Source: a virus
UHGV virus genome: UHGV-0179107
Direction: 5' to 3' (one strand)
Length of the DNA stretch: 13,840 nucleotides
Position numbers and translations under genes: made by a program. This document shows, piece by piece, positions 434-13,840 of the stretch (its first letter is position 1; the number at the start of each line of letters is the position of its first letter). Below the pieces are notes generated by a model. That model did not search any database, was not told the DNA's origin, and worked only from the letters and a program-made list of their open reading frames with translations.

Positions 434-670
434 TTATACCTCGCCTTGTCTTAAAGATTTTGATAATGAAATAGCCCTTTTCAGGGCCTCTTTATCAATA
501 TTATATTTCTCTGCCAGCTCTTCGATTGAGAGGCCTTCTGTGTGGGATCCACTTTTAATAATGGTGGACCCCTCTTTCGCTGACTCTGGCAGGTGACATA
601 CTGTCACCCCTTCGGGCGTGTCTTCGGAGTCCTTAACCAGTTTTTGATAAATCTTTTCGTAGGTATTCAT
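434..670 (-). CDS. Small protein (78 aa) with a probable helix-turn-helix near the C-terminus
   Basis: ORF track; ATG 670-668 sits 1 nt after the TGA of the upstream gene (translational coupling). The segment LSIEELAEKYNIDKEALKRAI looks HTH-like by eye. Function not recognised. Confidence 0.55.
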   Translation of the reverse strand: MNTYEKIYQKLVKDSEDTPEGVTVCHLPESAKEGSTIIKSGSHTEGLSIEELAEKYNIDKEALKRAISLSKSLRQGEV

Positions 671-671
671 A

Positions 672-1061
672 TCATTTACCTTTACGCTTCAGTGGGCACT
701 TATCTCCCACAGACCATACAAAAATATAATGGCGCTTGCTTTCAGCTTTAGGATTTAATAATTCTTTATGCAAATATCCGGCTGAAAGCATTTTATCGAT
801 CAGGTTTTTCACTCTTTGCCCTTCCTCAAATGTTTGTGCTTTAAAATAGAGATTTGGGAAGTTCTGACCTGTATATTTTCCATCTTCATATAAGCGGGTG
901 CATACCCAGCGACATAAATCATCATCGTTAAGATCACTAACGTGTGGTTTATCCTCACTGCTAAATAACGCCTGTTTAAAACGGGAGTATTTAAACTCCC
1001 CATCTTCCAGGAAATCACCCTCATCGAACTCAACTATCATTTCTTCAATATTCATAGGCAT
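672..1061 (-). CDS. Hypothetical protein (129 aa), acidic N-terminus
   Basis: ORF track. AAGGA is only 1-2 nt from the ATG at 1061, so the second in-frame ATG at 1055 (spacing about 7) may be the true start. No family recognised. Confidence 0.55.
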   Translation of the reverse strand: MPMNIEEMIVEFDEGDFLEDGEFKYSRFKQALFSSEDKPHVSDLNDDDLCRWVCTRLYEDGKYTGQNFPNLYFKAQTFEEGQRVKNLIDKMLSAGYLHKELLNPKAESKRHYIFVWSVGDKCPLKRKGK

Positions 1062-1080
1062 ATCCTTTTAGATAAACGTG

Positions 1081-1122
1081 AAAAGTAAGATAAATAAAGG
1101 CACCCCCATTTTTTGAGGGTGC
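1081..1122 (-). terminator. Candidate intrinsic terminator or attenuator inside the leftward operon
   Basis: On the minus strand, a GC-rich 6-bp stem (GCACCC / GGGTGC, plus 1100-1105 and 1117-1122) starts 7 nt after the TGA of the 147-aa gene and is followed by UUUAUUUAUCUUACUUUU. The stem is short, so strength is uncertain. Confidence 0.4.
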
Positions 1123-1129
1123 TTATTAA

Positions 1130-1573
1130 TCATTCAAGATTGACCAGTTTGAGAGGCTTCACCGCCTGCAGCATGGCCTGCATCATTCCTACGCTTATTT
1201 CGAAGAGGTCTGCCATGTTTTGAAGGCTGGCACCTTCTGCCTCAATCATTGATTTGGAGAGCGCCGCGATCACGAATCCATCCTTGGCGTTATCCCACAT
1301 GCTGAGGAGGGGATCATCTCCGTGCTGGCGCATAAGGTCTTGAATCATCCACAATCTACATGCCATAACCACCAAATCGACATAAAAAACATCACCATTG
1401 GCGGACTTGCATTCAGCAAAAGCGTGATGCCTGTGTTTTAAGAAGTGCTCTTTGTCACGGGTAAATGCCAGGGTGTTGGTAAACTTGCCATCTAAAAGAT
1501 CCTGGCGAACTTTTGAATCTTCAGCGTCGATAGCTTTGATAACCTGGGATAATAATTTAGCGATTTGAGACAT
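1130..1573 (-). CDS. Hypothetical protein (147 aa)
   Basis: ORF track; AGGA 8 nt upstream of ATG 1573-1571. No family recognised. Confidence 0.6.
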   Translation of the reverse strand: MSQIAKLLSQVIKAIDAEDSKVRQDLLDGKFTNTLAFTRDKEHFLKHRHHAFAECKSANGDVFYVDLVVMACRLWMIQDLMRQHGDDPLLSMWDNAKDGFVIAALSKSMIEAEGASLQNMADLFEISVGMMQAMLQAVKPLKLVNLE

Positions 1574-1593
1574 TTGGAATTCCTTAAATTAGA

Positions 1594-1671
1594 GCCCCGG
1601 AAGGGGTTAAACTCGTGCAAGTAGCCCTCGTCTCGAGGGTGTTAAAGTGAGTCGAAAATAAATAAATAAAT
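1594..1671 (-). promoter_or_regulatory. Intergenic element inside the operon: two short GC hairpins plus an (AAAT)4 tract
   Basis: Seen directly: CCCC-GGAA-GGGG (1595-1606), CCCTCG-TCT-CGAGGG (1625-1639) and (AAAT)x4 (1656-1671), all within the 112-nt spacer between the 162-aa and 147-aa genes. Role (mRNA processing, stability or attenuation) is unknown. Confidence 0.3.
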
Positions 1672-1685
1672 CGAAGAGATAAAAC

Positions 1686-2174
1686 TTAGGCTTTCTGGGC
1701 CATTGCTTTCTGGACTTTATTTCTATGGCGGCGGTAGATGAATATAAATTCGCGATAAGCACGACTACCGGGCTTAGGCAAACGTTGATTAAGCTCCTTA
1801 CGTGGCAGGATTTCACTCAACAAGCCCCATATATGAAAGCAGGTTACTTTTAATTCTTTTGCTATCTCTTCAATATTCATCCCACAATTCCACATTAAAA
1901 GAGATTTGCGGCGGCGATCTTCGAAGACATTTTTATCTCTATCTATGTCGTTATAGACACTGAGGGGAACTCGACACCGTGGATTCCAGGACTCATTATA
2001 TAGTTTTTGGACTTTCTCAAGTTTAACGCCTGTATATTCCGCCACGAATTCAGGGGTAAAGCCCTCGACTAATAAGTGTTTAGCCTGTCGTGTTGGTTGA
2101 TCATCACTGGGAAGATATTTCTGCAGTGCTACCAGTTTTTCGAATTGAGAATCAGAAAGATTAGATTTGAACAT
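1686..2174 (-). CDS. Putative transcription regulator (162 aa) with two HTH-like segments; C-terminal part resembles Mor/C-family phage activators
   Basis: ORF track; GGAG upstream of ATG 2174-2172. The segment RKSLLMWNCGMNIEEIAKELKVTCFHIWGLL matches, from memory, the W-N-x-G-x-N...E-L-A...V-T motif of phage Mu Mor-type activators. The family call is tentative. Confidence 0.55.
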   Translation of the reverse strand: MFKSNLSDSQFEKLVALQKYLPSDDQPTRQAKHLLVEGFTPEFVAEYTGVKLEKVQKLYNESWNPRCRVPLSVYNDIDRDKNVFEDRRRKSLLMWNCGMNIEEIAKELKVTCFHIWGLLSEILPRKELNQRLPKPGSRAYREFIFIYRRHRNKVQKAMAQKA

Positions 2175-2287: not shown

Positions 2288-2446
2288 TTAATAATCTTCA
2301 TCATAATCATCGTCAAATGTTCTTAACTCTGCAATATAACCGTCTTTCGCGGTATGCTCATAATATTCTTGAGTCTGTTTATCATAAGCCAAATCATCAA
2401 GATATTCTTTGCTAACAACCATATCGGTTAAATCTAAAGTTATCAT
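2288..2446 (-). CDS. Small acidic protein (52 aa), below the ORF-track length cutoff
   Basis: Hand translation: MITLDLTDMVVSKEYLDDLAYDKQTQEYYEHTAKDGYIAELRTFDDDYDEDY, with AAGGA about 8 nt upstream of ATG 2446-2444. It fills the gap between the 305-aa and 162-aa genes on the same strand. Confidence 0.35.
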   Translation of the reverse strand: MITLDLTDMVVSKEYLDDLAYDKQTQEYYEHTAKDGYIAELRTFDDDYDEDY

Positions 2447-2479
2447 AAGAGTTTTCCTTAATTAACTGAAAGGTAAAAA

Positions 2480-3397
2480 TTATTTATCAAGTAAAACCAT
2501 CTTGCCCTCTCTTAAGCGGCAATTTTGCCATGCTGGGAAGGGGTTCAATAAATCTCCGGGATTGGCTTCAGTGTCCACAATAATTTCTATCCCTTCGTTT
2601 TCTTTTAATAGATTTGCTAGACGAAAGGCTTGATCAGTAAGATGCCAATATTTAGCAGAATTCATTATTTTGCCATCAATGGTGCCTTTAATATTTTTCA
2701 TCACCTCATAGCCATAGATTTCATCACGCAATACGCTAAGTTTTACCCTTCCTTTACCTTTATATTTAGCTTTAGCTGCCAGATATGCCGCCTTTGCTTC
2801 AGAATTCGTCAGAACTGGATAACCGTAAAAATCTTTCTCACGTTTGCCAGCGTCTCTACGGCGTTCTCTGCGTTCTTTTTTAGGTTGGGAAGGGGATTGC
2901 ATTGCCTCGGGCTTTTCAGGCTGCTGTGCGGCTTGTTTTGGGGCTTCCTGAGGCTGTTCTACTTTAGCGGCAGTCTTTCCGAAAGTCTCTAAGATGCCTT
3001 CTGGAATATTTACGCCCTTCTCGATGCACATATCCAACAATTGATCAGGGGTTTTCAGCAATTCGTAATGATTAGATTTGCCTTTTTTAACAATTGAAAT
3101 AAGCCCAGCATTTTCAAGAGATTTAATAGCGCTGGCTATTTTCCCGCGATCCTTTCTGAGTTGAGTTGCCAGTTTTTGCTCTGAAATATAAATTCCCTCA
3201 CCGTTAAAATGAAAGCCCACCATTTTTCCATAAATTAACATTTCAAAGTCTGTTAAATAAAAGCGCTCTTTAACTGTTCCCGTCTTTTTATTAGAGATTG
3301 TTGTTGCTACCGGTTTATCAAAATCATACTGAATAAAGAAATCGAAAGAGGGGGTAAAAGGTGCCCCCAGTCTATTTCCTGCCATAATTTCCCCCAT
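2480..3397 (-). CDS. Putative iteron-binding replication initiator / replisome organiser (305 aa): N-terminal winged-helix domain, Q/P/E/K-rich linker, C-terminal domain
   Basis: ORF track. The N-terminal domain (KERFYLTDFEMLIYGKMVGFHF...ISEQKLATQL...AIKSLENAGLISIVKKGKSNHYEL) has the winged-helix layout of lambda-O / phage replisome-organiser type proteins, followed by a basic low-complexity linker (KKERRERRRDAGKREKD). ATG 3397 overlaps the TAA of the upstream paralog; an alternative start at 3385 gives matching MA-N N-termini in both paralogs. Confidence 0.65.
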   Translation of the reverse strand: MGEIMAGNRLGAPFTPSFDFFIQYDFDKPVATTISNKKTGTVKERFYLTDFEMLIYGKMVGFHFNGEGIYISEQKLATQLRKDRGKIASAIKSLENAGLISIVKKGKSNHYELLKTPDQLLDMCIEKGVNIPEGILETFGKTAAKVEQPQEAPKQAAQQPEKPEAMQSPSQPKKERRERRRDAGKREKDFYGYPVLTNSEAKAAYLAAKAKYKGKGRVKLSVLRDEIYGYEVMKNIKGTIDGKIMNSAKYWHLTDQAFRLANLLKENEGIEIIVDTEANPGDLLNPFPAWQNCRLREGKMVLLDK

Positions 3398-3783
3398 TAA
3401 TATATAAAATATTCTCTAATACCCTGCTCATCGCACATCTTGCCAAGCTGATCAGGGGTAATTAGCAATTCGTAGATATTCGATTTGCCCTGTTCTCGTT
3501 TAACGTTTATCAGACCTGCAGCTTCTAATGTTTTGATTGCCGACCTTACTGTTTTCTCTGTAACATCATAATCGTCTGCTAATGTCTGCGTCGAAAGCTC
3601 TGAGATAATTATTTCTTCACCCTCCTTAAAAGAATAACTTACCATTTCACCATAAATTGTTACCTCCAACAAATTTAAGTGAAATCTTTCTTTATTGGTT
3701 GCAGTTTTTGCAATCGGATTTTTAAAAGTGTATTTGATGAAACGTTTAAAAATGGGAGTAAAATTTTCATCGTTGTTTGCCAT
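3397..3783 (-). CDS. Truncated paralog of the adjacent initiator (about 128 aa): winged-helix DNA-binding domain only
   Basis: Clear paralogy with the N-terminus of the 305-aa protein (NFTPIFKRFIKYTF vs PFTPSFDFFIQYDF; GKSNIYELLITPDQLGKMCDEQG vs GKSNHYELLKTPDQLLDMCIEKG). The track start at 3798 is a TTG that overlaps the SD; ATG 3783-3781 with GGAGG 8 nt upstream is the likely start. Confidence 0.65.
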   Translation of the reverse strand: MANNDENFTPIFKRFIKYTFKNPIAKTATNKERFHLNLLEVTIYGEMVSYSFKEGEEIIISELSTQTLADDYDVTEKTVRSAIKTLEAAGLINVKREQGKSNIYELLITPDQLGKMCDEQGIREYFIY

Positions 3784-3807
3784 AATATGATCCTCCAAGA
3801 TTATTTA

Positions 3808-4017
3808 TCAAAGTAGGTGTTTATATCTTTCCAGCTCACGCTCGATGCGGATAAGGTTAAGTTTTTCTATTGCCGCTTCAATATGTGGGTATTTTCCTTT
3901 GTTACGACGGATAAAAGCATAAACAGAATTTTTATAGAACTTGCCGCTAAGCACGTTCTCTACGATTTCGTCAGTAGTCCAGTTTACCAGGGGGCTGACT
4001 GGCCCGTTGCTCGCCAT
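3808..4017 (-). CDS. Small protein (69 aa), first gene of the leftward operon
   Basis: ORF track; perfect AGGAGG (plus 4025-4030) 7 nt upstream of ATG 4017-4015. The opposite-strand ORF 3817..4077 is low-complexity and rejected. Function unknown. Confidence 0.6.
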   Translation of the reverse strand: MASNGPVSPLVNWTTDEIVENVLSGKFYKNSVYAFIRRNKGKYPHIEAAIEKLNLIRIERELERYKHLL

Positions 4018-4138
4018 AATGAGGCCTCCTATAATTCGAATCAGAATGATATACGGTTAAAAAGAAACGGGAACTAATAGCTCCCGCCAGTTAATTAAGG
4101 AAATCCACTATGATGACTTAGTGTATCCCTATGCTTTA

Positions 4139-4170
4139 TATTTTATCAGACATTCGTCAAATTGTCAACA
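4139..4170 (-). promoter_or_regulatory. Candidate sigma70 promoter for the leftward operon (-35 TTGACA, 17-nt spacer, -10 TAAAAT)
   Basis: Minus-strand reading: TGTTGACAATTTGAcgaatgtctgaTAAAAT. The first 14 nt are identical to the -35 region of the capsid promoter at 8017-8030, and the spacers are similar. About 115 nt of leader would precede ATG 4017. Confidence 0.4.
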
Positions 4171-4340
4171 ATCTTTTTGTATTTATCTATCATTTTTTCT
4201 TCAAGATTGTCGATTGCAGTCACTCCGGCTATGTAGGCAACACCGCACCACAGTACAGCCAGGTTGATGATCGCTATTGCATCAGTAATTTCCACATTGA
4301 CCTCCGGATCTGTTTCTCCCCCTATTTATAATCTTATCAT

Positions 4341-4489
4341 ATTGTCAACCAATTGTCAATGAGAATTATTATCATTTAGGTGTGCTATAGGTACAAGCAA
4401 GTCCACAGCAAAGGGGTAAGCATTATTAATGGCCCCTACCGTGTCAAAACCAAAATCACTTATAGCATTTATTCAATAAGATTGTCAAT
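4341..4489 (-). promoter_or_regulatory. Three further ATTGTCAA(C/T) sites (4341-4349, 4352-4360, 4481-4489), each a TTGACA hexamer on the minus strand
   Basis: Seen directly. With the site at 4161-4169 this makes four same-orientation copies in about 330 bp. Possible -10 elements are weak (TAAGAT, TATAAG), so these may be operators or secondary promoters. Confidence 0.35.
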
Positions 4490-4801
4490 GGCCCACAACA
4501 TGCCTTCCTGCAGAAGGTTTGATTTTAATCAAATCCACGAAGTGGACCACAGGAGGGAGAGCACTTTTTGCCTTAGGCGCTCTAAAATCAATTCTAACGC
4601 GATTTAGAGGTCAGGTAATGCAATTGCACTACTCACCACAGTTAATGCAGCCAGAAGGCCATTTAGGGGCCCTATTTTTGATTTATGAGTGTCATATTAC
4701 GTGCATGCACGCGCGGGAGACTCTTTGCTGCCTCCTTCCGGCGCTGGCAAGCTTTCGGCAGCGGTCCACATTGTGGGCCTCATGCTGACGCATTCGCCGG
4801 A

Positions 4802-4963
4802 CCCACACAGACCCGAAGGGCTTAGCCATGGGCTAAGGTGCCGTAGGCACTCCCACACACAATTGGGTGACGTGTCATGTATGGAATACATTGTCACCCC
4901 ACACACAGGCCGACGTAGTCGGTTTAGCTGTATAGCTAAAGTCACAAAGTGACCCACACACAG
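4802..4963 (+). repeat. Array of about 50-bp units, each beginning with CCCACACACAG and containing different short perfect palindromes
   Basis: Punctuation motif at 4802, 4852, 4898 and 4954. Palindromes: CTTAGCC-ATG-GGCTAAG (4821-4837), GTGCC-GTA-GGCAC (4838-4850), GGGTGAC...GTCACCC (4865-4899), CCGAC-GTA-GTCGG (4910-4922), TTAGCT-GTAT-AGCTAA (4924-4939), GTCAC-AAA-GTGAC (4941-4953). Confidence 0.6.
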
Positions 4964-4966
4964 ATT

Positions 4967-5003
4967 GCCTAAAGAGTCGCTCATGCTCTTTAGGCTTTCA
5001 TTT
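4967..5003 (+). terminator. Candidate intrinsic terminator closing the hairpin array
   Basis: Perfect 10-bp stem GCCTAAAGAG / CTCTTTAGGC (4967-4976 and 4986-4995) with a 9-nt loop, followed by TTTCATTT. The minus-strand side has no U-tract. Confidence 0.4.
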
Positions 5004-5124
5004 GTGGGTTAAGCTTTTCCCTTAGAAAACCTTCCCCACTCTCTGATCCCTCCCCATCCCCCCTTGTTGGGGGATTATAGGGGGAGTTCTTTTTATTGAT
5101 CTATTCTCTTTATCTATTAGTGTG

Positions 5125-5270
5125 GGAAATCCCAGCATATATATGTAGGAAATTCCCGCATATATATGTTGGAAATACCAGCATATCCCTTTCTGTGTAT
5201 GGTTGAATATGCGGGAAATTCCAGCATATCGATCCCTATGCATGTGGGAACATGTGGGAAATACCGACAG
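5125..5270. repeat. Iteron array, candidate replication origin: GGAAAT-N-CC-(A/C)-GCATAT repeats
   Basis: Four 16-bp copies at 5125-5140, 5148-5163, 5171-5186 and 5214-5229. The first three are spaced exactly 23 bp (about two helical turns), the fourth is 43 bp further. Degenerate copies follow (tandem CATGTGGGAA x2 at 5241-5260; GGAAATACCGACAG at 5257-5270; GGAAATATGCAGATC at 5403-5417). Confidence 0.55.
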
Positions 5271-6332
5271 GTCTGTGTGGCTTAATTTGACTTGATATTG
5301 ACTAACAAAGGCCTTCGTAGAAGGTTTGAGATGAGCTCAAATCACCATATGTGACTAACAAACCTCTCTCCTCTCTCTTTGCTTTGATTTTCTCTCATGT
5401 GTGGGAAATATGCAGATCAACACCCTTTGATTTTATCGACAGGTATGTTGACACGCCCTACGGTTGTGAGGCCCGGGCATCATAAGTATGGCCCCTGGGG
5501 CAGTCCATCCTTCCCTCACACAGGACAATGAATACACTCCTTGCAGTCATGAATACATAAAGAACATGAAAGACTGTTCACACCAACACGCCGATAAATT
5601 GCCTGAAGAGGCTTACATGGTGGGATTGTTGTGTGGGTAATAGTGATCATGCTAACAGATTATGTTAATCAGATGTAAATTCCGATTTTGTGGTCTGCAG
5701 ATAGCAAACTATACTGGTTAGATGATCAGGGGAATGACTACAAAACAATCAAAAATGTGGGATATAGACATCTATACTTCTAATGTGCTGTGTGGGGTGT
5801 TAGTGCGTCCTAACCTCTAAGTCATTGATTTTAAGTGTTGGGAGAGATGCATTTAACATAATAGATCTTATCTACACTAATAAAGCGCACTACAAAATCT
5901 GATTTAAAAATCATGATAAGGAGGCCCAGAATTTACGTACAGTCACCTGAATAAATAATGTGCACAACATACAGCAAAGCTTAAGAATTAACATAATAGC
6001 AACGTGGTCAGTAGTGGTGTGATATTTGAGAATTGTTAGAAGAAAAAAGGGAGGTGGGGGAGCGCCTGCCTGGCACCTCAGACGAACATCTGACGGGTAT
6101 TAATACCGCTAATGGATATTTCTGACACCCACACCCAAGACCGCTTTCAGCACATAGCCATACACCGCACAGGATGCAATTGTGATAACAAAAAATGGGG
6201 GTGTAATAGGGTAGGCTGTCTTTCATCAAAATCACTTCTACGACGTTACCAGAGTGATAACAAGAAAACAGGCCTCTAAGATTATCTGTGCCTCGTTTTT
6301 AGCTTTTTGTGTGGTTACCAGGTGAAGAGGAA

Positions 6333-6497
6333 ATGTTAAAAACTGTTCATTTTATGCACAAACTAGTCAGGGTGATACCACAAAATGAGGCGCAAGAAAT
6401 CCAGCTGCAGATAATCTTGCAGCCAGATTTTGCAGTTTTTGAGGGTATGTTAAATTTGACAAAAATAGAGAAAAGGCTTATTAAGATAACTTATTGA
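6333..6497 (+). CDS. Possible small ORF (54 aa from ATG 6333), weak
   Basis: ORF track 6309..6497 starts at a GTG; the internal ATG 6333 has GGTGA about 7 nt upstream. It is the only moderately plausible ORF in the 2.7-kb gap, with no recognisable family. Could be non-coding. Confidence 0.2.
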   Translation: MLKTVHFMHKLVRVIPQNEAQEIQLQIILQPDFAVFEGMLNLTKIEKRLIKITY

Positions 6498-6571
6498 TTT
6501 TATTAGTATTATGAAAAAGGGTTACACCCTCTCTCTTACTCTGTCAACCGGGCGGTTGTGGCATAAAACGG

Positions 6572-6697
6572 ATTAAATCAATAAATAGGCATTAAATACC
6601 CATTAAATACCCCTTAAATAGGGGTTAATTGCTCAGGACTGAAAGGAGTGTAAATAGGGGATAAATAGGGGTTAATTGAGGGATAAATAAAAAGGGG
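6572..6697. repeat. AT-rich direct-repeat cluster: TAAATAGGGGTTAATTG x2 plus shorter TAAATAGG and ATTAAAT copies
   Basis: 17-mer at 6615-6631 and 6662-6678 (47 bp apart); TAAATAGGGG at 6651-6660; TAAATAGG at 6582-6589; ATTAAAT at 6572, 6591 and 6603. Lies just beyond the terminator of the membrane-protein operon. Confidence 0.55.
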
Positions 6698-6710
6698 CCG
6701 TGATGGCCCC
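6681..6710 (-). terminator. Rho-independent terminator of the leftward HTH / membrane-protein operon
   Basis: Minus strand: GGGGCC-AUCAC-GGCCCC (plus 6694-6710) followed by UUUUUAUUUAU, starting 8 nt after the TGA at 6721-6719. Confidence 0.7.
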
Positions 6711-6718
6711 CTGGTAGG

Positions 6719-7237
6719 TCAGAACAGTTTTTTGCTTTTTCTCCAACTAACGCCGCGTTTGCCTATGCTCAGCCAGCCGCCAGCGAATCGGGTACCTGCG
6801 GTAACACTAGCTCCCCTGGTGCCTACATGTGCATAAATACCTGCCCCACTGCTACCACCGCTTCTACGGCTTTTTCCGCCATCGATATCGAGGAGAGCAC
6901 AGATTGCACCCCACAAAAAGCCAACCAACCAATATACATATGCTAAGCCTAAAACACCCCAGGTTACCGCCCACCCCTCTAGACTAGTGGGGAAGTAGAA
7001 AGCATTGAGAACAGCATTTATAGGACGGATCAGGAGAGAATCTATAAAACCAATATCCACATGAAACGGGCCATCACCGAACTTGCTACTGCCAATAAAC
7101 AAGGTAGCAGGGTAAAAACAGATAGCCATTAACCAAGGCCCGGCTATCAAAAACGCTGCAGTGTACTGAAAGAACATTTTTACCAGTTCTTTAAAAAGCC
7201 TTTTATTTACTGATTCTTTGTCTTTCTGGAATAACAT
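6719..7237 (-). CDS. Membrane protein (172 aa) with two predicted transmembrane helices and a Gly/Ser/Arg-rich C-terminal tail
   Basis: ORF track. Hydrophobic segments FFQYTAAFLIAGPWLMAICFYPATLFI and WAVTWGVLGLAYVYWLVGFLWGAICALL; tail GKSRRSGGSSGAGIYAHVGTRGAS...SWRKSKK. A purine-rich SD-like stretch precedes ATG 7237. No family recognised. Confidence 0.65.
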   Translation of the reverse strand: MLFQKDKESVNKRLFKELVKMFFQYTAAFLIAGPWLMAICFYPATLFIGSSKFGDGPFHVDIGFIDSLLIRPINAVLNAFYFPTSLEGWAVTWGVLGLAYVYWLVGFLWGAICALLDIDGGKSRRSGGSSGAGIYAHVGTRGASVTAGTRFAGGWLSIGKRGVSWRKSKKLF

Positions 7238-7294
7238 AGCGGTACCCCTTTGCGAGAAGTTGAATTTAGTTAATAACCTGTTGGACCGTTTACA

Positions 7295-7555
7295 TTACTT
7301 AGCTTTCTTGAATCTCCCGTCCTCCTTTCTTTCGATATTGTGGTAGTCGGCATAGGCTTTCAGCCTTCTGTGCACGGTGGCTATCCCCACACCGAAGGTT
7401 TTAGCAATAACCTGTCGTGGTGTTCCCTCCTCGACCATCTTAAACATCTGTGCCGCTACATCCATTTGTGCGGCTATCTCCATTTGCTTTGCCTTTGCTT
7501 TAACTTCAGCTATCAGCTCTTCCCTCAGTCTCCTGATATCTTTAGCCCCCGTCAT
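7295..7555 (-). CDS. Small DNA-binding protein (86 aa): N-terminal coiled coil, C-terminal resolvase/Hin-type HTH
   Basis: ORF track. The segment TPRQVIAKTFGVGIATVHRRLKAY fits the resolvase-type HTH pattern (IA...GV...TV.R.L). GAGGAG precedes ATG 7555-7553. Confidence 0.6.
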   Translation of the reverse strand: MTGAKDIRRLREELIAEVKAKAKQMEIAAQMDVAAQMFKMVEEGTPRQVIAKTFGVGIATVHRRLKAYADYHNIERKEDGRFKKAK

Positions 7556-7597
7556 AAACTCCTCTCAATGCTGTTCATAAACTCATCTCAATGATGA
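7552..7597. repeat. Tandem 23-bp duplication spanning the RBS and start codon of the HTH gene
   Basis: Plus strand TCATAAACTCCTCTCAATGCTGT (7552-7574) and TCATAAACTCATCTCAATGATGA (7575-7597). On the minus strand the upstream copy creates an 8-codon uORF (MNSIERSL) whose TGA overlaps the HTH start codon. Confidence 0.6.
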
Positions 7598-7656
7598 TTA
7601 ATACAAAATCTAAGACTACCAGACCTATTAAAAATGCTTTGCCTCCTTTGCCCATC

Positions 7657-7779
7657 TCATACCTCCACACACAGAGCTAACATCAGGGCTAACACTCCAA
7701 CCACCTCAATTGCCTTAACCATGTGTGGGTGATGAAACCTAGCCTTTTGCCATGCGCTGGCACTGTTCTTGATACCCAT
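7657..7779 (-). CDS. Possible small hydrophobic peptide (40 aa), below the ORF-track cutoff
   Basis: Hand translation: MGIKNSASAWQKARFHHPHMVKAIEVVGVLALMLALCVEV. Its 5-prime leader shares a 15-mer (plus-strand TTTGCGAGAAGTTGA at 7791-7805 and 7249-7263), within a roughly 26-nt homologous region, with the leader of the membrane-protein gene. Confidence 0.3.
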   Translation of the reverse strand: MGIKNSASAWQKARFHHPHMVKAIEVVGVLALMLALCVEV

Positions 7780-8016
7780 ATCTATAACCTTTTGCGAGAA
7801 GTTGATTTGTTTGCTCGGTTGGGTGCTATCAATGCTCCCCTTCCTTGATTCGAACTATAGCCGGGTAAATCCCCGGAAAACATTGATATTGATCAAAAGA
7901 TATCTATCACGAATGAAAAAGTTATGATAGATGCTATGAGATGACGTATTGATGGGATTGATAGAGGTCTGAAAATACCGTTACCACGCTAATTATTAGA
8001 ATTTATATAATCAGGG

Positions 8017-8047
8017 TGTTGACAATTTGAGAGAATACTGATATAAT
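8017..8047 (+). promoter_or_regulatory. Consensus sigma70 promoter upstream of the capsid genes
   Basis: TTGACA (8019-8024), 17-nt spacer, TATAAT (8042-8047), with an AT-rich UP-like tract upstream (7985-8015). The 14-mer TGTTGACAATTTGA (8017-8030) is identical to the reverse complement of 4157-4170. Confidence 0.6.
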
Positions 8048-8190
8048 ATACATATACACCGTAAATCTTTGGTGAAAGTGATTTGCCGTATTTTCCTCCA
8101 AAGTAAAGGCGACCAGGTAGCGGTGCCGCCTTATAAATAACACTACCCTGATCATCGTTGAGTGGTCGATTAATTCTCCTATTGGGCTAG

Positions 8191-8199
8191 TTATCCACA
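8191..8199 (+). promoter_or_regulatory. Perfect DnaA-box consensus TTATCCACA in the capsid leader
   Basis: Exact 9-mer seen directly. It overlaps the left arm of an 8-bp inverted repeat CCACACAG / CTGTGTGG (8195-8202 and 8221-8228). Only one copy, so a chance match is possible. Confidence 0.3.
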
Positions 8200-8366
8200 C
8201 AGTTTTCTTTTGCGGGTTTTCTGTGTGGGTAGCTATCCCGAAAGGTATTTCCCCGCTGATGTGACCGCAGCCTGAACTGATTCGGGGGAGTGCCTTTCGT
8301 GATAGTGCTCTCAAGCAACCGTAACCATGTGCTATCAGCCAACTTTGTTGGTTTTCCTCATGTGGA

Positions 8367-8396
8367 ATAGCCCCCGCTTGGACGGTGCGGGGCTAT
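8367..8396 (+). terminator. Terminator-like or attenuator hairpin in the capsid leader
   Basis: ATAGCCCC(C)GC / GCGGGGCTAT stem with one bulged C and a 9-nt loop, followed by a pyrimidine-rich but imperfect U-tract (CTCCCTCTTCTTAT). Lies between the promoter and the first capsid-module gene. Confidence 0.3.
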
Positions 8397-8525
8397 CTCC
8401 CTCTTCTTATATCAATCTCCCTTTTAATAGATTTCCGGCATAACTTTTCGGCCCGAGCCTGTCGTAGTTCTAGAGGTTATGCCGGAACTCTTTGAGGGGA
8501 GTTAATTTAAATCGCAGGTGATCAA

Positions 8526-8861
8526 ATGAGAGATATGACTATCCGCACACGCGGACACATCATTTCATACGCCGCAGATGAGCAATTCTCTATTCGTGAC
8601 GTGGAAGTGAAAAATAAAGTTAAGGCTGAGATCCCGGCCGGCACTGTTGTTGTGGTGACTGAGGCTGGCGAGGTTGAGACCTTCGTTAAAGCAACGCACA
8701 CCGGTAAAACTCCGCTGCTGGTTGTAGAACGTGCTGAGGTTGGTGATGCTTTTATCGTTGTTGCCAACAAAGGCTGTTATATCAATCCGGCCTACGTGGA
8801 TAAAGACGGCTTAGCCGCTGTTATCGCTGCCAGCAATGGCGATCTGCGTGTTGCACAATAA
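8526..8861 (+). CDS. Putative head decoration or accessory capsid protein (111 aa), immediately upstream of the major capsid gene
   Basis: ORF track; AGGTG 5 nt upstream of ATG 8526. Codon usage looks typical of highly expressed genes. Position and size parallel lambda D relative to E, but no direct sequence similarity was recognised, so the product call is positional. Confidence 0.55.
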   Translation: MRDMTIRTRGHIISYAADEQFSIRDVEVKNKVKAEIPAGTVVVVTEAGEVETFVKATHTGKTPLLVVERAEVGDAFIVVANKGCYINPAYVDKDGLAAVIAASNGDLRVAQ

Positions 8862-8872
8862 GGAGGTTGAAG

Positions 8873-9919
8873 ATGGCTAAAAAAGAATTCGAAGTTCGCG
8901 ATCTGTGTGGTCTGATTAAAGACATCCCGCTGGATAACCAGATTATTTCAGCAATGGATATCTTTAACACTACTGCTCTGTGCAATACCTTTAAATTTGA
9001 ATATGACAAAGTCCGCCAGGTGAAACAAACCGCTTTCGGTCAGTATCCGCGCTACGGTGAACAGATGGCGACCATTACCGCAGATGAGCGTGAAACGGGC
9101 ACGGGTGATATGGCATTCACTGCCGCATCCAGTGCTATTTATCCTTCTGACTGGCAGGGTATTCGTGTTCCGGGCAAAGATTCCGAAGAGAATTTAGAGT
9201 CTGTTACCGCTCGGCGTGTTATTCAGTTGGGTGAAGGCTTACGCCAGACCCATGAAGAAGCACGCCAGCTTGCTCTCTTTGAGAACAAAATTATCCTCAC
9301 CAAGGGTAAAGAACTGAATGTGTGCGAACTGCTGGGCGCACAGCAAACCACCTCGGAAGTGGATTTAGCTAAAGATATCCTTAAACAGCTGCAGGACCTG
9401 GTTGCACTGAGCAAGATTAAACAGCGTGGTGTCGTTCGCGCTCTTCGTGGTTTCACCCTGTTCTGCCGTGCTGAGCTCTTTGCTGCAATTCAGACTGATG
9501 AACTGTTGAGAAAAGTGCTGTTGTTCGGCAATCAGAATATTACCGACAAAGGTCTGATGTTCCCTGAGGATATTCTGCCGGGCTTCCCGACCTTCCGCAT
9601 TCCGGGCTTAGCCCTGCGTGTGGTGCAAATGGATAGTCTGCCAGAGAATACTGCTTATCTGGTCCCACAATTCCAGCCACATGCGTTAGGCGATATGGTG
9701 GGCGTTTATACTCAATTTTTCGGCCCTTGCGCTCGCAACTTGAAGCTTGCAAACGGCGCTGCACGTGAAGCTTTCATGTATATGGAAGAGTCCAGAGGTA
9801 AACGAGAAATCTTCATTGAATCCTCTTATGCTTTCATGAACATGATGCCTGAGGTTGTGGTTAAAGTGAGTGTTAGTAACTCCGCCGCCGCTGCTCTGGC
9901 AAAAGCCAAGGCTAAATAA
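8873..9919 (+). CDS. Major capsid protein, lambda gpE-like family (348 aa from ATG 8873)
   Basis: Track start 8867 is a TTG; ATG 8873 has a perfect AGGAGG 6 nt upstream. Size and the C-terminal LPENTAYLVP segment parallel lambda gpE (341 aa; LPDNTMVLG), recalled from memory. Confidence 0.8.
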   Translation: MAKKEFEVRDLCGLIKDIPLDNQIISAMDIFNTTALCNTFKFEYDKVRQVKQTAFGQYPRYGEQMATITADERETGTGDMAFTAASSAIYPSDWQGIRVPGKDSEENLESVTARRVIQLGEGLRQTHEEARQLALFENKIILTKGKELNVCELLGAQQTTSEVDLAKDILKQLQDLVALSKIKQRGVVRALRGFTLFCRAELFAAIQTDELLRKVLLFGNQNITDKGLMFPEDILPGFPTFRIPGLALRVVQMDSLPENTAYLVPQFQPHALGDMVGVYTQFFGPCARNLKLANGAAREAFMYMEESRGKREIFIESSYAFMNMMPEVVVKVSVSNSAAAALAKAKAK

Positions 9920-9950
9920 GGTCCTTCTTCGAAGGCCAAATAAAAGCAAA

Positions 9951-9999
9951 GGGAAGAGGTGAGAGATCGGGGATAGGTCTTTCCCTCTTCCCTTTTTTT
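9951..9999 (+). terminator. Strong rho-independent terminator after the major capsid gene
   Basis: GGGAAGAGG (9951-9959) pairs with CCTCTTCCC (9984-9992), followed by TTTTTTT (9993-9999). A small CCTTC-TTC-GAAGG hairpin (9923-9935) sits just after the stop codon. Confidence 0.7.
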
Positions 10000-10033
10000 A
10001 TTATCCCCGTCTTAAGTTTTTGAGGTGTCTTTT

Positions 10034-10285
10034 ATGAAAATTGTTTTATACGGCGACCGTGACGACGTGCCTTTTGATATTATCCATATCGATGACGAGG
10101 ATCTGCCGGAATTCCTGCGTATCTCCACATTTGCCGCCTGCTATGACGTTAGCCGCCAGGCTATGCACAAGTACCGTGAATATAATAAATGCACCTGGGC
10201 CGAGACTTTCGAACATTTTATTGCACGCAAACAAACCCAGGACCGCAAAAAAGCCCTGAATGCGCATAATCGTTTTGCAAAATAA
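10034..10285 (+). CDS. Small protein (84 aa), acidic N-terminus and a possible HTH
   Basis: Track start 10025 is a GTG; ATG 10034 has GAGGTG about 7 nt upstream. The segment LRISTFAACYDVSRQAMHKY looks HTH-like by eye. Function unknown. Confidence 0.5.
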   Translation: MKIVLYGDRDDVPFDIIHIDDEDLPEFLRISTFAACYDVSRQAMHKYREYNKCTWAETFEHFIARKQTQDRKKALNAHNRFAK

Positions 10286-10359
10286 CGATAGATAGCCCTG
10301 TCTTTTTATCAGAATTCACACAGGGCCACCAAAAGATTCAATTTGGAGGCATGTTTAAT

Positions 10360-11163
10360 ATGGCTAGTGATGCTCTGACAGCTGCAAAACAAGCTGAGTC
10401 GAGATCTCCTGCATTCACTGTTATGTGTGGGGGATATTCACAAAACAAAAATATAATGGATGGCTTCAACTATACCGATAATGTGGCTATCTTCTTTGAC
10501 TCTATCTCTGATGTCAGCTATTCGTTCCCTGTTGAGAAATCGAGCTATGCGGTCGAGGATGGCACCACCATGTCAGACCATGCCGTCATTAAAGATAAAT
10601 CTGTCAGCTTTACGGGTATTATTACCTCTTCCCCTCATATCATCCGGAAAGAGAACTACATTGACCGGAACACTGATCCAGATAATCCCCGTGAGTCTAT
10701 GCGCCCTGCTGCCGCTGTTCAGGCACTTATGGAAATGAGAGACAAGCGCCAGCTAGTCAGCCTGGTGAGTGAAGATGCCGGACTCCTTGAGAACTTCATC
10801 ATGACGAAATGTGAAGTTAAGCGTAGCTCTTCCTCTGGCGACTGCATCACTATTGATTGCACCTTTGAAGAATTCCGCACCTTCAAGGTGAAGATGGTCG
10901 AAAATGCCGGAGTCTTCACTAACAGCAAGAAGGTGAACAAAACACAGCAAAAGGGTGCTGTTAACAGTGCTAAAGAGGGTAGTAACGCTGGCAATGCTGC
11001 TACGAAATCCACCAGGGCTAAGCATCGCGGGGAATATGCACAGGGAGAGGCAGCGGGAAAGATTGCCGCAGGTGATAAGTCTGTTGTGTCGAACGAGTTC
11101 CACGAAACGATGATCGATAAGGCCAACATGTTGCTTGATGACATAACGGAGATCAATAAATGA
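10360..11163 (+). CDS. Phage morphogenesis-module protein of unknown role (267 aa), with a Lys/Ala/Gly-rich low-complexity C-terminus
   Basis: ORF track 10351..11163. GGAGG (10345-10349) is 1 nt from ATG 10351 but 10 nt from ATG 10360, so 10360 is preferred. The stop overlaps the next start (ATGA at 11160-11163). Confidence 0.55.
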   Translation: MASDALTAAKQAESRSPAFTVMCGGYSQNKNIMDGFNYTDNVAIFFDSISDVSYSFPVEKSSYAVEDGTTMSDHAVIKDKSVSFTGIITSSPHIIRKENYIDRNTDPDNPRESMRPAAAVQALMEMRDKRQLVSLVSEDAGLLENFIMTKCEVKRSSSSGDCITIDCTFEEFRTFKVKMVENAGVFTNSKKVNKTQQKGAVNSAKEGSNAGNAATKSTRAKHRGEYAQGEAAGKIAAGDKSVVSNEFHETMIDKANMLLDDITEINK

Positions 11164-11618
11164 GTCCTAAAGTCCGGTGCACCATAGACAAGCGCATGAT
11201 GGATAAGCTGCATAAAGAGCTCTCACAGATGGAAGGTGTAGCGGTTGGCTGGGATGACGGAAAGCACTATAGCGGCCTGAATTATGCCACACTGGCAGCA
11301 ATTCATTCTGAGGGGTGGGGTGATTTGCCTAAGCGCTCCTTTATGGAATCTGCACACGCTGCAATGCTCTATGAGAGCCTGAGACACACAAAAGCCCTGA
11401 TTAATGCAATCGTAAAGGGTGGAAGCTCTGAGGCCGTCAGGAAGCGAATTGGCAAGCGATACGCCGACATTTTGGAGACTATCCTGATTAGTGGGCAATT
11501 CAGCAATAACAAGGTATCCCCACAATGGGCAAGCTATAAAGGCTTCAATGATGCCATGCGCCACTATGATGATTTGATCGGTGCAATCAAATACTGGTCA
11601 AATGTGGGGAGAGGTTGA
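11160..11618 (+). CDS. Putative tail-completion / virion-morphogenesis protein (152 aa), HK97 gp10 / P2 gpS-like
   Basis: ORF track; translationally coupled to the upstream gene. The segment NYATLAAIHSEGWGDLPKRSF resembles the YA-x-IH-x-FG motif recalled for these head-tail joining families. Assignment is from memory, not a search. Confidence 0.55.
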   Translation: MSPKVRCTIDKRMMDKLHKELSQMEGVAVGWDDGKHYSGLNYATLAAIHSEGWGDLPKRSFMESAHAAMLYESLRHTKALINAIVKGGSSEAVRKRIGKRYADILETILISGQFSNNKVSPQWASYKGFNDAMRHYDDLIGAIKYWSNVGRG

Positions 11619-12145: not shown

Positions 12146-13840
12146 TTAGAAAAGCTGATTAGATTCCTGTGTGGCTTTCCAATCCAACTGATCGCTGACT
12201 TCCTTCTGGATCACCCTGGCAATTCCCCCCTCATCAATGGTTATCTCCCATTTGCCGGAGATCTCACCATGAGGCACCACATTAACCTGAGCAGGTTGAT
12301 AGCCGCCATTCTGAATAGCCGTACCCGTGCTAGGAGTAGGACGTGACGGGCTAATTGTTGGATATGGATTAAAGGAAGCTCCTTTGCTGATGTAGCTATG
12401 GTTATAGGCCCCTGGCTTGGTCATAGCATCCTGCTCATCACTGAGAAGGCCTTTAGATTTAGCCCACTCCCCGAACTGATCAGCCTTGCTTTGCATCCAT
12501 CCTCTGAACTTCTCACCTACCGTCTTAGCGCCAAGTGCGCCAGCGACACCAACACCCACACCTGCGGCACTGCCAGCGGCTAATGCTGTTGTTGGGCTTC
12601 CAGCGACTGCCCCGCCAGCACCCTTAACGAGATTGCCCAGACCTGGAATCTTGCCTATCAGAGAAATCAGTTGGGTGACAAGTGAAACAAATCCGGTTAG
12701 AGGGGAAAGCAGTGTAGTAATAACTTTCAGACCAGCTAAGCCAACCACCAGTTTTCCGATAAGCTCGCCAACCTCTGATCCGGTCATGCCGAACTCTTTA
12801 GCCTTAACCTCGATATAGCCCTTAGCGAAGCCTACCCAATACATGATCTCACGCATGGCAGCCCCGACTGCCTCACCAAACTGTTTTGCCGCGCTCCCGC
12901 TGCCGTCCATATCAGTGGTGAGGTCTTCGAAGATGGAGATTAGAGATTCAGATAAGCTAATAACGCCATCTGCAGGATCTACAACACCCATAAACTGAAT
13001 CGCCAGCTCGTTAAAGCTGTTTTTCATGCGCTGCATTGCTACTTCTGGCTGTTTCATGGATTCAGCAAAAGCTTTAGTTTCTTTTGCAGCACCCCAGATT
13101 TTCACCAGAGAAGGAAGAAGCTTGTCCAGGGTGATTTTGCCATCTTTAAGGGCTTTATCGAATTCCTGGGCATTCTTGATGATTCCGGCATCAATAGCGG
13201 CCTGTTGGAAGTCTTGTTGTGAGCCTGCAAAGGCTTCTGCCAGCTGCCCCCGCAGCTCCTCCGCCATGACTTTATTTTTTGAAGCCATTTGTTGGACCGC
13301 AACAAGCGCCCTGTTTTGTTGCTCACCAGTAGCACCCACTGAGCGGCCTTTAATAGCCATAGCCTCAAAAAGAGCCTGCTTATCAGATTCCTTCATGGTG
13401 GGGGTAGCGGCAGCAAAACGCATATAGCCGCCTTCCATCTCACGCTGATCCATCCCGTAGGTGTAGGCTGTGTTCTTGATGAAAGCCATCTGTTGGTCAG
13501 TCTTGGCTTTATCATCCTTGTTCTGGGCCATTAAACCGAAGTAGGCACTGTTGCGATCTGCAAGGCTGCTCATAGCACCACTAACAGCACGCTGAACACC
13601 CCAGCCAGCGGCAGTAAGGCCGATAGCTATCTTGCCTAAAGTGGAATTCAGTTTCCCCAGGTTGTCATGCAGCTTGGCCCCTGTGATCGCAACTTTATCC
13701 AGTCTGCTCTGGAATTTTCCGGCTTCTGCTGTTGCCATCTTCATTTCAGCTCTGAGTCGGGCCATTTTCTGATTATAGGTCTGCAGGTTGATAGCCCCTT
13801 TAGCATAATCAGCATTAACTCTCTGAATTCTGGATTGGAA
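12146..13840 (-). CDS. Tail tape measure protein, C-terminal about 564 codons; start codon lies beyond the window end
   Basis: Hand translation shows the frame is open from 13840 to the stop at 12148-12146; the track's M at 13765 is internal. Contains a TMP-core-like segment (TGEQQNRALVAVQQMASKNKVMAEELRGQLAEAF), coiled-coil N-terminal part, and a Gly/Ala-rich hydrophobic segment typical of tape measure proteins. Confidence 0.8.
   Translation of the reverse strand, partial: FQSRIQRVNADYAKGAINLQTYNQKMARLRAEMKMATAEAGKFQSRLDKVAITGAKLHDNLGKLNSTLGKIAIGLTAAGWGVQRAVSGAMSSLADRNSAYFGLMAQNKDDKAKTDQQMAFIKNTAYTYGMDQREMEGGYMRFAAATPTMKESDKQALFEAMAIKGRSVGATGEQQNRALVAVQQMASKNKVMAEELRGQLAEAFAGSQQDFQQAAIDAGIIKNAQEFDKALKDGKITLDKLLPSLVKIWGAAKETKAFAESMKQPEVAMQRMKNSFNELAIQFMGVVDPADGVISLSESLISIFEDLTTDMDGSGSAAKQFGEAVGAAMREIMYWVGFAKGYIEVKAKEFGMTGSEVGELIGKLVVGLAGLKVITTLLSPLTGFVSLVTQLISLIGKIPGLGNLVKGAGGAVAGSPTTALAAGSAAGVGVGVAGALGAKTVGEKFRGWMQSKADQFGEWAKSKGLLSDEQDAMTKPGAYNHSYISKGASFNPYPTISPSRPTPSTGTAIQNGGYQPAQVNVVPHGEISGKWEITIDEGGIARVIQKEVSDQLDWKATQESNQLF

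Follow-up and report, generated by a model that had tools for sequence, protein, structure and literature searches.

Two consensus-like promoter sequences and the leaders downstream of them in a probable satellite plasmid of Escherichia coli

The viral genome UHGV-0179107, a stretch of 13,840 nucleotides (nt) that is referred to as the window throughout, carries two promoter-like sequences that share an exact 14-mer and face in opposite directions: one, P_L, stands before a leftward operon with replication and tail genes, the other, P_cap, before an operon that includes the major capsid gene. The original prediction read the pair as one promoter cassette in two copies, on the premise that structural genes should not share such a promoter with an early operon, and proposed either a single regulator gating both operons or a satellite-like expression logic. 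The question that this locus raises is whether the likeness of the two sites carries regulatory meaning. Our analysis favors another reading, to which we assign a probability of roughly 0.6: P_cap and P_L would be constitutive consensus promoters on a satellite plasmid, with gating exerted after initiation, in the RNA leaders. Coordinates of the features under discussion are collected in Table 1.

Two probable promoters close to consensus

The 14-mer TGTTGACAATTTGA is found where it had been described, at 8017-8030 on the plus strand and at 4157-4170 on the minus strand, and a motif scan of the window returned a third copy with two mismatches (4337-4350, minus strand); none of 200 dinucleotide shuffles reached as many matches (three). 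The 17-nt spacer and the -10 element noted after each exact copy are likewise present, and a TG precedes the -10 element at both sites. In a consensus scan of the window, P_cap (12/12 positions with TG) is the best-scoring site and P_L (11/12 with TG) ranks second. Three sites of at least 11/12 with TG are observed (8019, plus strand; 4168 and 4488, minus strand) against 0.013 expected per window in Markov simulations. The presence of both promoter-like sequences is not due to chance. P_L, with a predicted start at ~4134, is embedded in the 3′ end of a 49-amino-acid (aa) open reading frame (ORF) and lies 116 nt upstream of the 69-aa gene, and P_cap, with a predicted start at ~8054, lies 478 nt upstream of the 111-aa gene. 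Both point toward genes, and the scan detected no other site of at least 9/12 between either promoter and its first gene.

The promoters were compared in 21 elements, comprising the window, nine plasmid or contig records and 11 further contigs. At P_cap, TTGACAAT and ACTGATA[T/C]AATATACA are invariant while the spacer varies, giving ten sequence variants; at P_L, TGTTGACAAT and TGATAAAATATA are invariant in the 19 relatives from which the site was recovered, with four spacer variants. The polymerase-contact elements are exactly the invariant parts of both promoters, and the spacers change freely. In a divergent relative (L131), whose capsid protein is 82% identical, P_cap is kept and its spacer is completely different. 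Both sites thus display what characterizes sigma-70 extended -10 promoters, namely the hexamers, the 17-nt spacing, the TG, the placement and a core that stays conserved while neighboring bases drift; an A/T-rich region lies upstream of each. Judged by their match to consensus, their position before two operons and the conservation of their core among relatives, both are very probably real promoters, as had been proposed.

A formal alignment confines the likeness of the two sites to a skeleton of TTGACAAT, 12 nt and TGATAWAATATA. The description as near-identical cassettes holds for the opposite orientation and for this shared skeleton, whereas overall identity amounts to only 74% over 46 nt: TTGACAAT and TGATAWAATATA together agree in 19/20 positions, but outside the skeleton (-30 to +60) 24/70 positions match, which is chance level (0.31 expected per position, p=0.34). 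The exact 14-mer occurs at both promoters in 6/21 elements, at one of them in 11/21 and at neither in 4/21, and changes at P_cap are not mirrored at P_L or vice versa. No dyad and no other shared motif was found flanking P_cap and P_L. Compared with a shared-operator regulon of the lambda O_L/O_R kind, the pair has neither a common operator beyond the polymerase contacts nor an operator conserved across relatives at both sites. One regulator gating both operons is therefore unsupported, as the likeness is limited to polymerase contacts, the spacers vary independently and the 14-mer pair exists in a minority of elements. P_cap and P_L resemble each other because both sit at consensus, not because of a common operator.

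The motif is also a generic one. Although a skeleton TTGACAAT-N12-TGATAWAATATA of 19 fixed bases and one two-fold position should by our estimate occur about twice by chance in 596 Gb, it has at least 120 matches in unrelated, mostly Firmicutes, genomes and at least 120 in viral contigs. The 11-mer TGTTGACAATT also makes up the -35 region of the chromosomal E. coli trp promoter. Through the skeleton and through this trp-promoter 11-mer, the motif is in substance common in unrelated genomes, an outcome that the original prediction had itself named as counter-evidence. BLAST searches with the cassette against phages yielded weak matches (E >=0.2) in unrelated phages, the best being unannotated stretches of Bacillus phages, and the 14-mer has at least 120 matches in IMG/VR, a number from which, given the size of that collection, nothing can be concluded for so short a motif. 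For this lineage, the premise that a promoter of this kind does not belong before structural genes fails as well. In the rV5-like phage MaxTheCat (Bas57 of the BASEL collection), TTGACAAT-N12-TGGTAAAAT immediately precedes the tail chaperone/tape measure module, and extended -10 sites of a similar kind stand before other tail genes. With the same promoter type thus present before tail genes of a candidate helper, there is nothing anomalous, within this lineage, in a sigma-70-type promoter ahead of structural genes.

Two more TTGACAAT-type sites on the strand of P_L, at 4359-4331 and 4488-4459, had been overlooked. The former, inside which a tandem second TTGACAAT lies at 4348, is conserved by relatives, and the latter by several of them. 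The window holds five TTGACAAT sites versus ~0.4 expected from its length by our own estimate, and the units 4463-4492 and 4188-4217 are 77% alike.

Predicted leaders downstream of the promoters

Regulatory content appears to lie in the leaders downstream rather than in the resemblance of the promoters. On the leftward side, a 10-bp GC-rich hairpin (stem 4088-4066) follows ~45 nt after the predicted start, continues into UUUCUUUUU and precedes the 69-aa gene. Folding of the 79-nt leader gives -23.9 kcal/mol (z=-3.9) and leaves the variable linker UAAUUAACUG unpaired. A terminator stands 76-99 nt after the P_L start in every relative analysed, including two elements (L009 and L381) with an unrelated leader and a different hairpin. 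Complementarity to the leader was searched over 3.2 kb of the leftward operon by contiguous-complementarity tests against 500 shuffles, which replaced a noisy energy-based duplex scoring dominated by long, loop-rich duplexes. In the window, an antisense segment of the leader (the “seed”) is complementary to the translation start of a small acidic ORF, with a score reached by 0/500 shuffles. Seed and target belong to the same strand and are 1.6 kb apart, placing the putative regulator in the leader of its own operon.

In relatives, leader and target differ in sequence, yet the highest-scoring complementary site occupies the equivalent functional position. Leader/target pairs sort into type A (the window, L377 and L379), type B (eight elements) and type C (five elements), with shuffle tests of 0/500, at most 3/500 and 0/500, respectively. 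Within a 10-nt variable segment, cognate leader/target combinations form 10, 8 and 9 of 10 pairs, non-cognate ones 3-7. Two elements (L006 and L008) with the same replication protein have concordantly different leaders and targets. All relatives in which such pairing occurs encode the small acidic ORF, and no significant leader pairing was detected in L001, L132 and L384, the three elements that lack the ORF and have a different replication module. In a fourth type, D (L009 and L381), the pairing covers the start codon of the elements' own 62-aa ORF and includes two G-U pairs. Rfam returned no match for either leader or for the ORF-less region, at the gathering threshold or at E<=5; by its predicted function the P_L leader would resemble the c4/CI class without being a member of the Rfam C4 RNA family.

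Several other readings of the leftward region were considered and rejected. The 32-nt inverted repeat together with the helix-turn-helix (HTH) protein of HTH_7 type could have marked an invertible segment, but no recombinase catalytic domain is encoded, after inversion P_L would read the replication genes in antisense, and the two arms have different centres. As judged by eye, relatives do not keep the frame of an ORF at 4131-4331 (plus strand) that is antisense to the 49-aa gene. The conserved 5′ hairpin segment UCAUCAUAGUG of the P_L leader is complementary to CACTATGATGA at 11558-11572 (plus strand) in three leader types; as a target in the capsid operon this 11-15-nt match was discarded, being inside the 152-aa gene, off its translation start and borderline in shuffle tests (4/300, 21/300 and 20/300).

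On the rightward side, the leader predicted from P_cap is among the most structured segments of the element, with a minimum free energy of -171.5 kcal/mol versus -134 for shuffles (z=-6.3, reached by 0/100 shuffles). Its first ~30 nt vary among relatives, and the next ~230 nt are almost invariant. The consensus fold comprises 128 pairs, eight of them with double changes that come mostly from one divergent sequence, and in a hairpin at ~8346-8360 close relatives differ by a clean compensatory exchange (CCAAC/GUUGG versus CCGAC/GUCGG). The Shine-Dalgarno region of the 111-aa gene is base-paired in this fold to a TGATCA segment upstream of it in the close relatives, a pairing not kept in L131. 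A terminator scan detected no intrinsic terminator in this leader, which also contains no ORF with a convincing start, and a search for an antisense partner of its variable 5′ end returned background-level matches only. Two candidate elements within or near it were dismissed: a T4-type late promoter, TATAAATA, at 8132 (plus strand) and 4323 (minus strand) is absent from the scanned 14.6-kb tail-gene stretch of MaxTheCat and imperfect in L131, and an RfaH ops-like GGTAGCG in a leader hairpin loop (8112-8118) agrees by eye with 7/12 ops positions and misses the ops-hairpin bases.

From sequence and covariation we propose the following scheme. P_cap and P_L are probably constitutive and served by the host housekeeping RNA polymerase. 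Most P_L transcripts would end at the terminator ~77 nt downstream, yielding a small RNA, and a minority would read through and allow expression of the replication genes. The exposed linker of the small RNA, together with its anti-Shine-Dalgarno segment, would pair with the ribosome-binding site (RBS) of the small acidic ORF and block its translation, a block that via polarity may hold down the distal genes ending with the tape measure gene. P_cap would give rise to the structured 477-nt leader, which presumably keeps capsid-gene expression limited or conditional until the arrival of a helper phage. The satellite-like expression logic invoked in the original prediction hence remains plausible, but for a different reason, as control would reside in transcribed leaders rather than in a shared promoter cassette. 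Within the leftward operon, a strong intrinsic terminator (1100-1122, minus strand) separates the 147-aa gene from the module of the 129-aa, 78-aa and tape measure genes, and would form a second barrier before the leftward tail genes.

Table 1 Promoters, leaders and genes discussed in the text (window coordinates; TG, dinucleotide before the -10 element)
Feature	Coordinates	Strand	Description
P_cap, capsid-side promoter	8017..8050	+	-35 TTGACA 8019-8024, 17-nt spacer, TG 8039-8040, -10 TATAAT 8042-8047
P_L, leftward promoter	4137..4170	-	-35 TTGACA 4168-4163, 17-nt spacer, TG 4148-4147, -10 TAAAAT 4145-4140
Promoter-like site TTGACA-17-TAAGAT with TG	4331..4359	-	10/12, third in consensus scan; upstream of 49-aa ORF
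Promoter-like site TTGACA-18-TATAAG with TG	4459..4488	-	11/12 (separate scan for >=11/12 with TG)
P_L leader RNA, 77 nt, predicted	4058..4134	-	5′ hairpin, single-stranded linker UAAUUAACUG, intrinsic terminator
Antisense seed segment of P_L leader	4088..4119	-	32 nt, 84% complementary to 2437-2468
P_L leader target, putative	2437..2468	-	Shine-Dalgarno AAGGA and ATG of small acidic ORF, just downstream of replication gene
Small acidic ORF, 52 aa (48-62 aa in relatives)	2288..2446	-	Presumed regulated gene heading distal operon part
Capsid-operon leader, 477 nt, untranslated, predicted	8054..8525	+	Transcribed from P_cap (predicted)
49-aa ORF	4146..4295	-	One hydrophobic helix; shares leader terminator; annotated in all RefSeq relatives
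Proximal leftward genes	2480..4017	-	69 aa (4017-3808), 133-aa winged helix (3798-3397), 305-aa replication initiator (3397-2480)
Distal leftward genes	434..2174	-	162 aa, 147 aa, terminator 1122-1100, 129 aa, 78 aa
Tape measure gene	12146..13840 (3′ part) and 432-1 (5′ part)	-	Pfam TMP_3; PHROG 5255 E=3e-149
Capsid operon	8526..11618	+	111 aa, major capsid 8867-9919, 86 aa, Dit-like 10351-11163, 152-aa tail-completion-like 11160-11618
86-aa HTH protein (resolvase-type HTH_7)	7295..7555	-	Pfam HTH_7 E=1e-6; divergent from P_cap

A plasmid related to rV5-like phages

The window matches E. coli plasmids of 13.2-13.8 kb with 91-95% identity over most of its length and had no match in the phage collection. 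Among 5,426 complete E. coli genomes the element was found in seven, always on a plasmid. E. coli strain 190, with NZ_CP020521, is an example of a carrier. When the ends of the window are joined (432-1 with 13840-12146), an uninterrupted tape measure ORF of 708 aa results, of which the ORF lists show a 539-aa fragment only; the window is therefore the whole circle of ~13.8 kb in permuted form. Circular records of 13.2-13.8 kb, occurrence on plasmids only, replication-initiator matches and 23-bp iterons are the properties of a small autonomous replicon. The capsid protein has only 18 relatives of at least 82% identity among 5.8 billion proteins, all those with a named source coming from E. coli and most residing on contigs of 13-14 kb. 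Several hundred Logan assemblies contain the capsid protein cluster, with 441 members in cluster P0001 alone. The family is represented in E. coli from humans, cattle, pigs and chickens, and resistance genes can be present on its members.

The element shares sequence with rV5-like phages (Vequintavirus). Its Dit-like protein has 51% identity with the “tail tube initiator” encoded downstream of the tape measure gene in these phages, its 152-aa protein is 45% identical to the product of the gene after the rV5-like tail-capping gene, and its tape measure protein is 25% identical to theirs. The 129-aa and 78-aa genes occupy tail chaperone positions with the tape measure gene next, an order that matches the rV5-like chaperone-tape measure module. 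No phage homolog of the capsid protein was detectable by tblastn, and neither Pfam nor PHROGs recognised a terminase, portal, sheath or tube protein among the window proteins. Head and tail-length genes in the absence of these functions make an unusual gene set for a satellite, and an incomplete virion gene set with homologs in a candidate helper. In addition, a non-coding segment of 63 nt (4710-4772, minus strand) is 84% identical to an intergenic stretch of MaxTheCat (MZ501094, 131729-131791). Its 6-bp stem differs in three pairs, all of them compensated (GCUGCC/GGCAGC in the plasmid, ACCGAC/GUCGGU in the phage), and encloses the conserved loop GAAAGCUUGCCAGCGCCGKAAGGAG, with patchy similarity extending over ~250 nt. 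Within the phage collection, the segment is confined to 119 records; those inspected are Vequintavirinae, and the 18 labelled as Campylobacter phage nevertheless also contain an rV5-type tail-tube-initiator match. The segment may correspond to a structured RNA common to both, or to a site for packaging or regulation that was copied from the helper. Since proteins and a non-coding hairpin are shared with virulent rV5-like phages, the element is probably a plasmid-borne satellite of these phages.

The motif TGTGTGG(G), with a short GC-rich hairpin after every copy, recurs several times in 4770-4960 (minus strand); the number of copies varies among relatives, with some missing in, for example, L004 and L386, and similar TGTGTGG motifs flank the homologous region in the phage.

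Replication genes of the element match Pfam HTH_36 and O-like replication initiation families of PHROGs, and the capsid operon matches PHROG 29 (E=6e-21), Pfam Dit_like (E=2e-25) and PHROG 222. The 86-aa HTH_7 gene forms a divergent pair with a 172-aa gene. NCBIfam and PADLOC assigned no function to the proteins left unassigned. An ORF-poor region of 2.3 kb (4400-6700) harbors five copies of the 23-bp iteron TGTGGGAAATCCCAGCATATATA (5121-5280), probably the replication origin, and, just past the terminator of the 172-aa gene, an array of 11-bp TAAATAGGGG-type repeats (6582-6689) that could serve as a partition site or another protein-binding site. The replication module is mosaic, with at least three initiator types among relatives, and a given initiator type is not always accompanied by one and the same leader/target RNA type. 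A 73-nt repeat (3015-3087 and 3422-3494) corresponds to a winged-helix segment that the 133-aa and 305-aa proteins have in common at their N termini. Further repeats surround the divergent pair: a 22-nt tandem duplication (7552-7596) contains the RBS and start of the 86-aa HTH gene, a 43-nt repeat (7224-7266 and 7766-7808) is common to the start regions of the 172-aa ORF and of a 40-aa hydrophobic ORF (7779-7657), and AACTTCTCGCAAAAGG precedes both of these ORFs. Among the relatives, NZ_CP043822.1 (L002) is a 39.6-kb head-to-tail trimer of the element with one damaged copy; the trimer is about the size of a phage genome and might be what is expected of a headful-packaged satellite, or an assembly artefact. 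NTNY01000053.1 (L132) is a 30-kb contig on which the element lies beside aminoglycoside phosphotransferase genes, a TetR-family regulator gene and a transposase.

Competing explanations, related systems and meaning

A protein could still read the 14-mer, be it encoded by the element or by its helper, and switch both operons together. Such a factor would account for the exact recurrence of the 14-mer and for the constancy of TGTTGACAAT, invariant at P_L and nearly so at P_cap; small HTH proteins are encoded nearby, and a site overlapping the -35 element is a common position for a repressor. We nevertheless consider it quite improbable, because bases 11-14 of the 14-mer vary together with the rest of the spacer independently at both promoters, and the TG before the -35 element of P_cap is replaced by GG in two relatives (GGTTGACAAT) and by TC in L131 (TCTTGACAAT). 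Dyad symmetry is missing, and a 5-bp inverted repeat around P_cap (ATCAG/CTGAT) is broken in relatives. The only candidate protein regulator near P_cap is the 86-aa HTH_7 protein; nothing resembling the 14-mer stands upstream of its gene, and no copy of the motif upstream of any HTH gene. The remark that no cI-like repressor is visible agrees with protein family searches, in which no window protein matched a cI/Cro-type repressor; small HTH proteins of uncharacterised specificity are present. The similarity could also be purely historical, one cassette having been duplicated or converted within the element without functional consequence, and the surplus of TTGACAAT sites, the two 77%-alike units and the tandem TTGACAAT pair at 4359 and 4348 fit such a descent. 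However, flanks beyond the skeleton are at chance similarity, so any duplication must be old or very short. Common descent, which we hold to be unlikely, is moreover compatible with constitutive promoters and RNA gates and adds no regulatory meaning.

The two remaining alternatives concern the helper and the capsid leader. If the promoters copied an rV5-like promoter class, they might stay active or preferred after the helper has taken over host transcription; 36/175 TTGACA hexamers in MaxTheCat are preceded by TG, two sites of this phage match TTGACAAT-N12-TGnTAnAAT exactly, one of them before the tail chaperone/tape measure module, and element and rV5-like phages have proteins and the non-coding hairpin in common. 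The same features are, however, found in the host trp promoter and in many unrelated genomes, hence they are in no way helper-specific, and no helper factor altering promoter choice was identified; mimicry of this kind seems improbable to us. P_cap might instead serve mainly to produce a functional non-coding RNA, that is the 477-nt leader, or mark a DNA site such as a packaging signal. The unusual stability of the leader, its almost invariant core and the lack of a convincingly initiated ORF would suit either role, which we still judge unlikely: transcription would meet no terminator between the leader and the 111-aa gene, no other promoter-like site lies in 8050-8526 to serve that gene, and the covariation is thin, stems mostly from one divergent sequence and comes without an Rfam family.

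Constitutive promoters with gating in the leaders thus remain the favored explanation, and several observations weigh against it. A repressor may act at a site that coincides with TGTTGACAAT itself. Type D pairing is non-significant on Watson-Crick scoring (60/500), and energy-based duplex scores are only modest, with z between -0.7 and -3.1. Gene conversion of an inverted duplication, and not selection for RNA pairing, could keep leader and target alike. The dependence of the element on a helper, finally, is something we infer.

Counterparts for the individual parts of the proposed scheme are known. In their TTGACA, 17-nt spacer and TGnTAWAAT, P_cap and P_L equal consensus sigma-70 extended -10 promoters such as trp and the tac/trc derivatives. 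TrpR represses the trp promoter through an operator that overlaps the -10 region, whereas no comparable operator is detectable at P_cap or P_L. The putative leftward circuit is reminiscent of c4-icd-ant of phages P1 and P7 in having a leader-encoded regulator RNA, the RBS of a small ORF heading the regulated genes, and matched changes among relatives. Citron and Schuster (1990-92) reportedly placed c4 in the leader of the immI operon that it controls, where it is said to pair with the RBS region of a small ORF; P1 and P7 reportedly differ by matched changes of regulator and target, and c4 is said to be cut from its transcript by RNase P. The c4 RNA acts in trans to repress synthesis of Ant in P1/P7 (PMC8546580). 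In contrast to c4, the P_L RNA would be released by an intrinsic terminator, and it is without sequence or Rfam similarity to it; the genes downstream of the target encode uncharacterised proteins and tail proteins here, and no known antirepressor. The immunity of satellite P4 offers a second parallel, as P4 is able to live as a plasmid and has no protein repressor, a constitutive promoter, P_LE, and a leader-derived CI RNA, with premature termination before replication and late functions. Our element would share with it the plasmid life of a satellite, the constitutive early promoter, the (predicted) leader-derived small RNA and premature termination, and the absence of a protein repressor. 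However, P4 CI RNA pairs with the nascent leader and causes termination upstream of the replication gene, whereas the target proposed here is downstream, at an RBS, and the element has no homology to P4 genes.

For the capsid side, lambda P_R' and Q provide a close comparison, with a strong constitutive promoter before late genes and control downstream of initiation, as proposed here. Unlike the lambda arrangement, the capsid leader contains no intrinsic terminator, is much longer and is highly structured, and no Q-like gene was found in the window. As an entity, the element is comparable to the satellite-plasmids cf-PISP and PISP, which are circular, measure 11-16 kb, encode replication functions and capsid proteins of their own and have been proposed as episomal phage satellites (Nat Commun 2026, PMC13230959). 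In those plasmids, for which Vibrio is the only reported host, tail genes are missing and genes for a portal, a protease or a small terminase are present (PMC13230959). The present element is likewise a circular plasmid with its own replication functions and a capsid gene, but it resides in E. coli, has a tape measure, a tail-tube initiator and a tail-completion homolog and no recognisable portal, protease or terminase, and its phage relatives are virulent rV5-like myoviruses. According to a 2025 review, many plasmids without known mobility functions may be satellites; such plasmids are expected and essentially undescribed (PMC12282955).

The promoter pair itself is ordinary, and it carries a caution, as two consensus promoters will always look like a shared cassette. 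A tentative further possibility, which we would put clearly below an even chance, is that the element represents a new satellite-plasmid family silenced without a protein repressor, by constitutive promoters and two RNA gates, a terminator-released leader RNA of exchangeable specificity types that blocks the small acidic ORF, and a large structured capsid leader. It would then bring its own capsid, tape measure and tail-tube initiator and parasitise virulent rV5-like phages. If the gated distal genes included an opener of the capsid leader, a single regulator would control both operons after all, as an RNA acting after initiation and not as a protein at the 14-mer.

To date, Vibrio is the only genus from which plasmid-borne satellites of tailed phages have been described (PMC13230959), and the element looks like an apparently undescribed plasmid-borne phage satellite family in E. 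coli. The element and its covarying leader/target RNA pair are new versions of known kinds of system. With rV5-like phages available, it would offer a tractable E. coli system for the timing of satellite genes and the remodelling of head and tail, and an RNA-based mechanism of immunity or specificity could be put to a direct test through the covarying leader/target pairs.

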